In this document: positions 24,109-26,340 of the stretch, in pieces | Numbering within the stretch: position 1 is the stretch's first letter | Layout of the letters: every line of letters begins with the position of its first letter | Assembly (NCBI GenBank): GCA_035645255.1 | Contig: DASQMY010000428.1 | Span: 1 to 44,180, forward strand | Length of the DNA stretch: 44,180 nt | Source: Mycobacteriales bacterium | GTDB lineage: Bacteria > Actinomycetota > Actinomycetes > BP-191 | Reading direction: 5' to 3' | Translations under genes and position numbers: made by a program | The notes under the pieces: model-generated | Databases searched by the model: none | Told to the model about the DNA's origin: nothing | The model's input: the letters and a program-made list of their open reading frames with translations, nothing else

Positions 24109-24891
24109 CTAGCGACGAGTCACGCCGGACTCGTCGTCCACCTCTACCCGCTCCTTGCGGAGGTCGGCAGAGATCTGCTCCTCCTCGGTGACGCGCTCCT
24201 TGTCGAGCCGGATCCGCTCCTTGGGAACGACCTCGGTCTCGGCCACCGCGCGCTCCTCGTGCACGGTCACCTCGAACTCGTTCTCGGTGATCTCCGGGCC
24301 GTCCATCGCGTCGCCGATGTTGCCCGAGTCGACTGCCTCGCGCTGGACCGTGACCCGCTCCTTGGTCACCGGGACGGTCTGCGTGACGCGCTCGTTCTCG
24401 ACCCACTTGCGCAGCCGCACGCGGCCGGCCTCGTGCTGGGTCTTGCCGACGCGCAGCTCCTCCTCGGAGCGGGTCATCGCGTTGTCGTGACCGCTGGTGG
24501 TGCGGCTCTTCTGCTGCGTGTCGCCGGTGTAGGCGGTGCCGCCCTCCGGCAGGCCCGAGTCGGAGCGCGACTCGGAGTAGTTCATGCCGTAGTGACGGTA
24601 GAGGTCCGCCTCCTCCTGCTGCGACAGCGCGCCGTCCGGCTCAGCGGTCGGTGCACCCTTCACCTGCTCCTTGGAGAACTGCAGGCGGACGTCGTCGCCC
24701 TGGCTGGAGGCGCCGGTGATCGGGACGAAGCTGACCTTGGAGCCGAACATGCCGGTCGAGACCGCCAGCCACTCCGGCTTGCCGGTCTCCTCGTCGAGGT
24801 AGATGTCGTCGATCTTGCCGATCTTGTCGCCGTCGGCGTCGTACGCCGTCTGACCGATCCAGTTGCGCATCTGCTGTGTGTCGACAGTCAT
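24109..24891 (-). CDS. PRC-barrel + DUF2382 (YsnF-like) stress protein
   Basis: The C-terminal 260 codons of ORF 24109..26214, with ATG 24891 and SD GGAAGGAG 5 nt upstream. It has an N-terminal PRC barrel (..DADGDKIGKIDDIYLDEETGKPEWLAV..) and a DUF2382 repeat (RSEEELRVGKTQHEAGRVRLRKWV..). Confidence 0.85.
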   Translation of the reverse strand: MTVDTQQMRNWIGQTAYDADGDKIGKIDDIYLDEETGKPEWLAVSTGMFGSKVSFVPITGASSQGDDVRLQFSKEQVKGAPTAEPDGALSQQEEADLYRHYGMNYSESRSDSGLPEGGTAYTGDTQQKSRTTSGHDNAMTRSEEELRVGKTQHEAGRVRLRKWVENERVTQTVPVTKERVTVQREAVDSGNIGDAMDGPEITENEFEVTVHEERAVAETEVVPKERIRLDKERVTEEEQISADLRKERVEVDDESGVTRR

Positions 24892-24946: not shown

Positions 24947-24974
24947 CCGGTCTGCGGTTGCAGACCCGGTTTTT
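24947..24974 (+). terminator. intrinsic-terminator-like hairpin + T5 on the + strand
   Basis: CCGGTCTGC-GGTT-GCAGACC(C)GG followed by TTTTT. A T5 run is rare in this sequence. No + strand gene lies upstream of it. Confidence 0.4.
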
Positions 24975-25030
24975 CCGTGGGTGGCGACCGCGGAGACGAG
25001 TCCTGGGTCAGGAAGACTCGCAACAGCCAC

Positions 25031-25057: not shown

Positions 25058-25146
25058 CGCTCTTCCGCTGAAGGAAGTGACCTCTCACCTCGCGGCGTTA
25101 CCTCGCCGAGACCGGTTTGGTTTCGCGGCCGGTGAGCGGCGTGCGC

Positions 25147-25152
25147 TACCCT
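25147..25152 (+). promoter_or_regulatory. -10 hexamer TACCCT, 6 nt upstream of the leader-peptide ATG
   Basis: The sequence reads TACCCT-gcgcgc-ATG(25159). This is TANNNT with canonical leaderless spacing, and no SD precedes the ATG. Confidence 0.4.
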
Positions 25153-25158
25153 GCGCGC

Positions 25159-25236
25159 ATGACTTCGCACGCGGCGACCTTTTGGTATGCGTACCGCCCG
25201 GGATCTCCCGGTGCGGGTGCGCACGCTGCCGCGTAG
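25159..25236 (+). CDS. 25-codon leader peptide MTSHAATFWYAYRPGSPGAGAHAAA (aromatic-codon run)
   Basis: Read by hand, since it is below the ORF-track cutoff. Codons 8-12 are TTT TGG TAT GCG TAC. It lies 73 nt upstream of the DAHP synthase and stops at TAG 25234-25236. Confidence 0.55.
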   Translation: MTSHAATFWYAYRPGSPGAGAHAAA

Positions 25237-25301
25237 CGAGACCCCACCGACACTCAGCCCCGGGCCAACTGCCCGGGGCTGCTTGGTCTGCCCCGGAAGG
25301 A
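25196..25301 (+). promoter_or_regulatory. candidate attenuator RNA with four segments and mutually exclusive pairings
   Basis: A is GCCCGGG (25196-25202). B is CAGCCCCGGG (25255-25264). C is CCCGGGGCTG (25272-25281). D is GCCCCGG (25290-25296), overlapping SD GGAAGGA (25295-25301). A:B is 7 bp, B:C is 10 bp and C:D is 7 bp. Confidence 0.4.
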
Positions 25302-25308
25302 ACTGAAG

Positions 25309-26340
25309 ATGGTCGTCGTCATGCGTCCCGACGCACCCGCTGACGAGGTGGCCGGCGTGGTCTCGCTGGTCGAGACCGCCGGCGGCTCGGCGTTCGTGAG
25401 CCGTGGCGTGTCCCGGACCATCATCGGTCTGGTCGGGGACGTCGCGCAGTTCCAGTCGCTCAACCTGGCCAGCCTGCCCGGCGTCACCGAGGTCATCCGG
25501 ATCTCCAAGCCGTACAAGCTCGTCTCCCGTGAGCACCACCCGGAGACGTCGACGATCGTGGTCGGCGGCGTGCCGATCGGGCCGTCGACGTTCACGCTGA
25601 TCGCCGGCCCGTGCGCGGTCGAGACCGCCGACCAGACGCTGGCCGCCGCCCAGATGGCCAAGCGTGCCGGCGCGACCCTGCTCCGCGGCGGCGCGTTCAA
25701 GCCGCGGACGTCGCCGTACGCCTTCCAGGGGCTGGGCGAGGCCGGGCTGAAGATCCTCGCCGACGTGCGGTCCGAGACCGGGCTTCCGGTCGTCACCGAG
25801 GTGGTCGAGGCGCGCGACGTCGAGCTCGTCGCGTCGTACGCCGACATGCTGCAGGTCGGCACGCGCAACATGCAGAACTTCTCGCTGCTGCAGGCGGTCG
25901 GCTCCACCGACAAGCCGGTGATGCTCAAGCGCGGTCTGTCCGCGACGCTCGAGGAGTGGCTGATGGCCGCCGAGTACATAGCGCAGCGCGGCAACCTGCA
26001 GGTCGTGCTGTGCGAGCGAGGTATCCGGTCGTTCGACCCGTCGACCCGCAACACCCTCGACATCTCGGCGGTGCCGATGGTGCGGTCGATGAGCCATCTG
26101 CCGATCGTCGTCGACCCGTCGCACTCCGCGGGGCGCAAGGACCTCGTCGTGCCACTCGCCCGCGCCGCGATGGCCGTCGGCGCGGACGCGGTGATGGTGG
26201 ACGTGCACCCGCACCCGGAGACCGCCCTGTGCGACGGTCCGCAGGCGCTGACCGAGGTCGACCTCGTCGAGCTGAGCGAGGCGGTGCGGACGATACCGGT
26301 GATTTTGGGCCGTACGTCCCCGGAGATCTCGGTGCGCTGA
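25309..26340 (+). CDS. 3-deoxy-7-phosphoheptulonate (DAHP) synthase, type I-beta with N-terminal ferredoxin-like regulatory domain
   Basis: ORF 25309..26340. The N-terminus MVVVMRPDA..TIIGLVGD..KPYKLVSRE resembles the Thermotoga-type FL domain. The catalytic core shows IAGPCAVE, LRGGAFKPRTSPY.FQG, KRG and ERG. Confidence 0.9.
   Translation: MVVVMRPDAPADEVAGVVSLVETAGGSAFVSRGVSRTIIGLVGDVAQFQSLNLASLPGVTEVIRISKPYKLVSREHHPETSTIVVGGVPIGPSTFTLIAGPCAVETADQTLAAAQMAKRAGATLLRGGAFKPRTSPYAFQGLGEAGLKILADVRSETGLPVVTEVVEARDVELVASYADMLQVGTRNMQNFSLLQAVGSTDKPVMLKRGLSATLEEWLMAAEYIAQRGNLQVVLCERGIRSFDPSTRNTLDISAVPMVRSMSHLPIVVDPSHSAGRKDLVVPLARAAMAVGADAVMVDVHPHPETALCDGPQALTEVDLVELSEAVRTIPVILGRTSPEISVR

Follow-up and report, generated by a model that had tools for sequence, protein, structure and literature searches.

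Short leader peptides that regulate aromatic amino-acid synthesis have a described actinobacterial example in Corynebacterium glutamicum, where the Phe-Tyr-Phe leader aroR lies directly upstream of aroF, a gene for 3-deoxy-D-arabino-heptulosonate 7-phosphate (DAHP) synthase (Mentz et al. 2013, PMC4046766). The passage of PMC11802643 that cites Neshat et al. (2014, J Biotechnol 190:55) presents aroR-aroF as a transcription attenuator whose read-through rises under Phe limitation, and aroR is reported to be responsive to Phe, not Tyr. No aromatic or DAHP synthase leader is reported in the actinobacterial attenuator surveys PMC8079986 and PMC1262725. Here we analyse a stretch of 44,180 nucleotides (hereafter the window) from a Mycobacteriales bacterium (contig DASQMY010000428.1), in which a short open reading frame (ORF) rich in aromatic codons precedes the gene for a DAHP synthase of another class. 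An initial annotation of this DNA had proposed that the leader and a set of mutually exclusive hairpins control the translation of that gene, and had named aroR-aroF as a precedent from a different DAHP synthase class; the literature just cited confirms the aroR-aroF leader. Our analysis confirms the observation itself. The earlier reading named the right kind of control but the wrong mechanism: we regard the element as probably a ribosome-mediated transcription attenuator of the classical type, responsive to the charging of aromatic tRNAs, and apparently as a further, uncatalogued instance of textbook leader-peptide attenuation.

An aromatic leader ORF is conserved upstream of the DAHP synthase gene

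The gene at issue (25309..26340, + strand) encodes a type I-beta DAHP synthase of 343 aa with an N-terminal ferredoxin-like (FL) regulatory domain, as judged by Pfam and structure alignment. PF18152 (DAHP_snth_FXD) covers residues 1-67 and PF00793 (DAHP_synth_1) residues 93-326, an architecture that places the protein in the FL-domain type I-beta class, and its best solved relatives are the Thermotoga maritima structures 1RZM/3PG9, to which it aligns over its full length (E 3e-108). Upstream of it an ORF of 25 codons plus TAG, MTSHAATFWYAYRPGSPGAGAHAAA, runs from the ATG at 25159 to a stop codon at 25234-25236 (25159..25236, + strand). Codons 8-12 of this leader (25180..25194, + strand) are TTT TGG TAT GCG TAC, encode Phe-Trp-Tyr-Ala-Tyr (FWYAY), and are the candidate regulatory codons. 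No purine-rich Shine-Dalgarno (SD) sequence was found before ATG 25159. A -10 hexamer of the TANNNT type, TACCCT (25147..25152, + strand), lies 6 nt before the ATG with no clear -35 element, and a sigma-70 consensus scan called no promoter in the window. Hexamer, ORF and codons, together with the four segments A to D, the SD sequence and the ATG of the synthase gene discussed below, are all found where the initial annotation had placed them. Across both strands of the 44 kb, this leader is the sole short ORF that has TANNNT 5-8 nt upstream and at least three aromatic residues in five.

The initial annotation had called for a comparison of orthologous upstream regions, and this was made with 80 loci, one per species, whose DAHP synthases are 68-78% identical, and with a closer set of nine relatives (including L081, L082 and L085-L089), whose DAHP synthases are 86-96% identical. 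The short ORF with Phe, Trp and Tyr codons and the covarying stems turned out to be conserved, while segment D was not. Specifically, an equivalent short ORF with an aromatic cluster is present in about 60 of the 80 Actinomycetota species, 60-200 nt upstream of the orthologous FL-domain type I-beta gene, in Streptosporangiales, Frankiales, Mycobacteriales, Propionibacteriales and other orders (for example MRQQFWFWFGYRPGSRTVARQTLR, MRTAFWFWYGDGPVGRTVRHQVLR, MRNVVYFFWFDQPGRLVCQTLR, VLQSWYAYPTRDSRSGAV and MQQRTYLFGRLPGVPGQLAD), and also in 9/9 close relatives. The structure counts and the codon and spacing statistics given below refer to the 60 leader-bearing orthologues. Phe, Trp and Tyr all occur in 45 of these 60 leaders, and in L081 the aromatic codons differ from those of the window by a single synonymous change, TTT to TTC.

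This enrichment of end-product codons in a short upstream ORF, which is what an attenuator should have, exceeds that of the controls. Upstream ORFs with at least four aromatic residues in six were found in 43/81 orthologous upstream regions, against 0/81 on the reverse strand, 1/405 shuffles and 0/726 other pieces. The promoter geometry is kept as well: TANNNT (often gCTAnnnT) stands 6-9 nt before the ATG or GTG in 58/60 orthologues, the remaining two having it at an alternative start, and the background expectation for the hexamer at this distance is 1.4%. The leaderless geometry is therefore conserved, and the initial claim of a leaderless ORF whose aromatic codons are the regulatory ones is borne out in so far as both the geometry and the cluster persist across the orthologues.

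Approximately 20 of the 80 orthologous loci have neither a leader ORF nor a terminator, and there the start codon of the DAHP synthase gene itself lies 6-8 nt after a TANNNT hexamer. Loci of this kind are L003, L015, L028, L030, L035, L042, L047, L055, L057, L058, L063, L073 and L079. Where the start codon directly follows the hexamer in this way the DAHP synthase mRNA would itself be leaderless, and these loci suggest that the whole attenuator cassette has been repeatedly gained or lost between promoter and gene.

The codons that carry the cluster are also unusual. In the genes of the window TTT occurs 8 times vs 245 for TTC, and TAT 5 times vs 203 for TAC, so that the rarity of these two codons noted in the initial annotation holds for the window, where Phe and the first Tyr of the cluster are carried by rare, wobble-decoded codons. 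It is in addition a conserved property of the leader family: UUU makes up 61% of the Phe codons and UAU 59% of the Tyr codons of the leaders, against 1% each in the adjacent DAHP synthase genes (Fisher p ~1e-46 for Phe and ~1e-34 for Tyr).

These conserved residues could also be read as a sign that the peptide itself is functional, either as a nascent TnaC-like arrest peptide, responding to free aromatic amino acids from within the ribosome tunnel, or as a stable micropeptide. Conservation within clades does extend beyond the aromatic residues (for example FWFWYGYRPGxRTVARQTLR), and Pro-Gly often follows the cluster directly. Between clades, however, the non-aromatic part is wholly different (RPG, GDGP, DQPG, PDRDSRSG, SPGHG), while the RNA hairpin and a CCGGG motif persist in different reading frames. 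Moreover, within a clade the 3' half shows no synonymous variation where it is paired, pointing to constraint at the RNA level, there are no linked modification or export genes, and the element always lies upstream of a DAHP synthase gene. The divergent peptides, the persistent hairpin and the invariant synonymous sites indicate selection on the aromatic codons and the RNA, and we regard a function of the peptide as very unlikely.

A near-invariant hairpin with terminator features follows the leader

Beyond the leader stop codon, segment B (CAGCCCCGGG, 25255-25264, + strand) and segment C (CCCGGGGCTG, 25272-25281, + strand), both read in the sequence, pair over 10 bp, or 11 bp counting 25265:25271, around the loop CAACU. 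The resulting hairpin (25255..25281, + strand; CAGCCCCGGGC CAACU GCCCGGGGCUG), identified by folding and conservation and called T here, has an energy of -25.5 kcal/mol (z -4.8), and the leader region as a whole folds with z = -6.0 against shuffles. The stem GCCCCGGG...CCCGGGGC has a core that is near-invariant in the 60 orthologues and the nine relatives, which makes it the most conserved feature of the region, and compensatory AU/GC/CG/UA changes are found at its base among the orthologues. Its position is kept at 8-30 nt past the leader stop codon (median 15). Across the family it is followed by a tail in which U makes up 50-72% of positions -2 to +6 from the stem end, vs 18% overall; in close relatives the hairpin and tail read GCCCGGGGUUUUUU(U)CGUG, and canonical U6-7 tails occur in L082 and L085-L089. 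The tail is thus clear in the family, and it is weak in the window, where CUUGGUCUG (25282..25290, + strand) has 4 U in 9 and no run longer than 2.

A near-invariant B:C stem with a U-rich tail argues that this hairpin is a putative conserved intrinsic terminator, that is, the OFF state, and not the ON conformer for which the initial annotation had taken it. The 27 nt between the hairpin and the DAHP synthase ATG hold no TANNNT hexamer, so transcription of the gene must pass through the hairpin. We also considered B:C as the terminator of the upstream gene and rejected it, since that gene is divergently oriented and in every case the promoter of the leader itself precedes the hairpin.

A covariance model trained on the terminator-state structure only (R1) finds a single full element in the window, at 25144-25306 (54.7 bits, E 2e-11), and recovers the element in 9/9 held-out relatives. 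In loci whose DAHP synthase gene lacks the leader it finds no full-length element, the match in L061 being to the terminator hairpin only. Rfam searches of the window and of 16 orthologous loci gave no match at the gathering score, and with E up to 10 the window returned only chance-level matches. When RNAalifold was run on a 60-sequence MAFFT alignment it predicted the terminator only; the other helices required explicit structures.

Two further observations concern this hairpin. R1 also matches it on the opposite strand, both in the window (25256-25280, - strand) and at many other loci, as the stem, flanked by A-rich and U-rich sequence, is close to a palindrome; where a convergent gene lies nearby the hairpin could be bidirectional. 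In addition a CCGG or CAGG(G) motif recurs directly after the U-tail (TTTCCGG, TTCCGGG, TTCAGGG; columns ~200-210 of alignment A1) in many Streptosporangiales and Nocardioides orthologues, with examples in L039, L045, L046, L021, L075 and L007.

The hairpins do not form a conserved lid on the ribosome-binding site

The initial annotation had favoured translational over transcriptional attenuation. According to that model, when aromatic amino acids are replete the pairings A:B and C:D would form and hide the SD sequence of the synthase gene (GGAAGGA, 25295..25301, + strand), and when they are scarce a stalled ribosome would cover segment A, B:C would form, and segment D and the SD sequence would be freed. 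All four segments and their pairings are indeed present. Segment D (GCCCCGG, 25290..25296, + strand), read in the sequence, can pair with 25273-25279, and this C:D hairpin of 7 bp has an energy of -16.1 kcal/mol (z -2.7). The best fold under a forced A:B pairing includes C:D and has an energy of -79.4, vs -87.8 for the unconstrained minimum free energy (MFE) structure, and so lies only 8 kcal/mol above it. The weak U-tract of the window would fit translational control too, and an engineering paper calls aroR a 'translational regulatory leader peptide' (PMC7356990).

The comparison of orthologues nevertheless speaks against this model. Segment D is missing in L081, whose DAHP synthase is 96% identical, and the spacer from the terminator to the SD sequence and synthase start is unconserved, ranging from 19 to 100 nt across the family, so that we judge the C:D pairing incidental. 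Only two of the seven bases of the SD sequence fall within C:D, and this sequence, with P(unpaired) 0.70 in the full ensemble, has nearly the same predicted accessibility with the terminator open as with it formed (0.67 vs 0.62 in the window and 0.44 vs 0.52 in the family). A conserved helix that occludes the SD sequence or the start codon was sought in the window and across the family and was not found. Moreover a ribosome covering segment A would favour the terminator rather than the ON state, which is the wrong sign for a biosynthetic gene, and in the orthologues B:C is followed by a U-rich tail. Taken together, the loss of D in L081, the slight overlap of C:D with the SD sequence and the unchanged accessibility led us to reject occlusion of the SD sequence, and control at the level of translation appears improbable.

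A related candidate, sequestration of the SD sequence by the 3' arm of the terminator, was rejected after the family-wide accessibility test. Separately, an anti-SD-like sequence, GCUCCUUU, flanks the terminator on its 3' side and, with the terminator open, is predicted to pair with the SD sequence of the synthase gene at P >0.3 in 19/60 orthologues (for example L022, L046, L080 and L001); this pairing is not predicted in the window and is too inconsistent to be a family feature.

Segment A mimics the terminator 3' arm and could act as an antiterminator strand

Inside the leader ORF, folding and conservation identify a hairpin, P1 (25188..25223, + strand), whose 5' arm (25188-25202) shares nucleotides with both the Tyr codons and segment A and whose 3' arm spans 25207-25223; its energy is -26.1 kcal/mol (z -4.4). 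A hairpin that abuts or overlaps the aromatic codons is found in every clade, with a sequence that differs by clade. Since it overlaps the Tyr codons and contains A, P1 has the geometry for holding this strand, and we propose it as an anti-antiterminator and, possibly, a pause hairpin.

Segment A itself (GCCCGGG, 25196..25202, + strand), read in the sequence and examined by duplex folding, is a near-copy of the terminator 3' arm, GCCCGGGAUCU vs GCCCGGGGCUG in the window. It pairs with 25259-25265, that is, one nucleotide past segment B as first delimited, in a duplex of 7 bp and -17.5 kcal/mol. The mimicry follows the terminator from clade to clade: GGACCC corresponds to GGACCC in the GDGP clade and GGCCC to GGCCC in the YRPG clade, so that segment A shifts together with the terminator (GGACCC/GGGUCC vs GGCCC/GGGCC). 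It is also fixed in place: in 92% of the 60 orthologues, vs 26% under a uniform null, the 12-mer that best complements the terminator 5' arm falls between -6 and +12 nt relative to the aromatic cluster.

A second helix, P2 (25209..25249, + strand), supported by folding and pair counts, joins 25209-25218 to 25241-25249 around an inner hairpin (25220-25226 : 25231-25238) in which the stop codon lies. P2 uses the 3'-arm strand of P1, with which it is mutually exclusive, and stacks under A:B in an antiterminated conformer (25194-25266) of -39.7 kcal/mol (z -3.0). In both the MAFFT and the R1 alignments the pairs of the terminator state (P0, P1 and the terminator) are paired in 72-75% of cases vs 34-52% when pairing is recomputed with the partner strand slid, and those of A:B and P2 in 68% vs 28-44%; for the MAFFT alignment by itself the figures are 72% vs 35-51% and 68% vs 28-43%. 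On the MAFFT alignment the covariation scores of both structures lie above all 500 shuffles. Importantly the R1 alignment was not fitted to A:B or P2, and compensatory pair types in P2 (e.g. CG 30 / GC 14 / UA 9 / UG 9) appear even there.

When a ribosome is masked on F8, W9 or Y10, the MFE structure before the terminator 3' arm has been made is A:B plus P2 (-39.7 kcal/mol). By computation, this pairing does what an antiterminator should do, engaging the terminator 5' arm and excluding the terminator, and A:B is a likely antiterminator. The mutually exclusive hairpins that the initial annotation described between the leader and the synthase gene, through A:B, B:C and C:D, are thus confirmed in the sequence. 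The parts of the element exist, are conserved and positionally fixed, and include mutually exclusive pairings.

A proposed mechanism and the evidence that bears on it

From these parts we infer the start of transcription, the translation of the leader, the helix that belongs to each state and the response to amino-acid supply. Transcription would start at or beside the A of ATG 25159, giving a leaderless mRNA, and a 70S ribosome would translate the 25-codon leader while RNA polymerase proceeds. With aromatic amino acids replete (OFF), Phe-, Trp- and Tyr-tRNAs would be charged and the ribosome would reach the TAG at 25234; segment A would stay in P1 (25188-25223), T (25255-25265 : 25271-25281) would form, and most transcripts would end before the DAHP synthase gene. 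Under starvation (ON), scarce charged aromatic tRNA would make the ribosome stall on TTT, TGG or TAT (25180-25188) and melt the base of P1. The 3' arm of P1 would then pair with 25241-25249 to form P2, segment A (25196-25202) would pair with the terminator 5' arm (25259-25265), and the terminator would be pre-empted, so that the DAHP synthase gene would be transcribed.

Several points weigh against this mechanism. The studied contig is metagenome-assembled. The tails after the hairpin are weak in the window (CUUGGUCUG) and in L081 (CUUCGUCUG), and a terminator consensus scan of the window did not call B:C; mycobacterial RNA polymerase reportedly depends on a U-tract, which may make termination inefficient in this genome. 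A stall on Tyr 12 would cover segment A, for which termination is predicted and not antitermination. CCCGGG is self-complementary, and many pairings among the GC-rich segments are therefore possible. The covariation of A:B is limited by near-invariant core columns to one clade-level change, GGACCC/GGGUCC in the GDGP clade, which matches the terminator. Alignment-free duplex energies across species gave only a modest gain for native over cross pairs (P2 -16.8 vs -13.5, A:B -19.9 vs -18.5), and this test was not relied on for our conclusions. Finally, the stalled, at-stop and ribosome-free states could not be told apart when the equilibrium ensemble was simulated under ribosome masks: the terminator 5' arm was paired upstream at 0.85 when stalled, 0.79 at the stop codon and 0.71 with no ribosome, so that the switch would have to be kinetic.

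The failure of the equilibrium simulation to discriminate the states is also in line with a constitutive 5' element without aromatic sensing, be it a hairpin that confers stability, a site of Rho-dependent polarity or a small RNA ending at a terminator of its own, and about 20 of the 80 orthologues do manage without the element. Such an element would, however, leave unexplained both the enrichment of Phe, Trp and Tyr codons, with rare UUU and UAU, before the first gene of the aromatic pathway and the positionally fixed mimic of the terminator after the aromatic codons. We hold it to be unlikely, and ribosome-mediated transcription attenuation remains our preferred reading.

Neighbouring genes

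The divergent upstream gene of the window (24640-24891, - strand) is an ORF of 84 aa with a PRC-barrel domain. Its counterpart in the 96%-related contig (L081:1-283, - strand) has a called product of 260 aa with PRC and DUF2382 domains, and a frameshift, a truncation or a difference in gene calling may account for the unequal lengths. Between the start of the PRC-barrel ORF (24891, - strand) and the leader promoter there is a terminator-like hairpin, GGTCTGCGGTTGCAGACC followed by CGGTTTTTCC (24949-24975, + strand), where no plus-strand gene obviously ends; it is the sole call of the terminator consensus scan (24949-24966) and is unrelated to B:C. In one of the close relatives the leader-controlled type I-beta gene faces a convergent gene for a type II DAHP synthase (PF01474; L086:1245-1948, - strand), the two overlapping at the end of the former, so that two classes of DAHP synthase lie side by side in these organisms.

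Significance and comparison with known systems

DAHP synthase sets the entry of carbon into the shikimate pathway. As the enzyme already carries an allosteric FL domain, an attenuator before its gene would be a second layer of control, acting on mRNA synthesis and reading tRNA charging rather than the free amino acid. With about three quarters of the sampled orthologues carrying it, in several orders that include the antibiotic-producing Streptosporangiales, the element is a candidate for a new family of cis-regulatory RNAs. For strain engineering its deletion is an obvious route to more aromatic compounds, a step already taken in C. glutamicum with aroR, and the extreme bias towards rare codons offers a natural test case for how codon choice tunes attenuator sensitivity in high-GC bacteria. 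A bolder picture, which we put forward tentatively and consider possible though still doubtful, is that one leaderless leader integrates all three aromatic amino acids at the entry to the shikimate pathway, its sensitivity tuned by the rarest, G:U-wobble codons UUU and UAU, and that it belongs to an ancient, order-spanning Actinomycetota RNA family, absent from Rfam, which has repeatedly been lost in favour of a leaderless DAHP synthase mRNA.

The closest described system is aroR-aroF. Both are actinobacterial short leader ORFs with consecutive aromatic codons directly before a DAHP synthase gene, and in both stalling raises, or here would raise, downstream transcription. The leaders described here, in contrast, nearly always add Trp. 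The enzyme differs too: C. glutamicum AroF is a type I-alpha DAHP synthase, whereas the enzyme regulated here is of type I-beta with an FL domain (FXD plus DAHP_synth_1). A further difference is the reported response of aroR to Phe and not to Tyr.

With the enterobacterial attenuators trpL-trpEDCBA, pheL-pheA and pheM-pheST (Yanofsky; Rfam Trp_leader and Phe_leader) the element shares an ORF of regulatory codons, a hairpin that overlaps them, a proposed antiterminator as the alternative fold and, 8-30 nt past the leader stop, a putative intrinsic terminator. Unlike them it is leaderless by its geometry, without an SD sequence for the leader, would sense three amino acids in one leader, and would control the entry enzyme of the common pathway and not a terminal branch. 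It has, moreover, no Rfam match, a very GC-rich terminator stem and, in the window, a weak U-tract.

The leaderless leaders of Streptomyces and Corynebacterium (trpL, leuL, ilvL, alaL and thrL; PMC8079986, PMC1262725) have the same layout, likewise in high-GC Actinomycetota: a short leaderless ORF behind a TANNNT promoter, with hairpins in which a clear U-tract is sometimes missing; the codon set and the downstream gene are different. In the literature on actinobacteria other than Corynebacterium that we consulted, including these two papers and PMC4833913, the element is not mentioned. Finally, the FL-domain allostery of the T. maritima type (1RZM, 3PG9) involves the same enzyme architecture and aromatic feedback on the same step, but it is inhibition at the protein level, whereas the element described here would control the synthesis of the mRNA.

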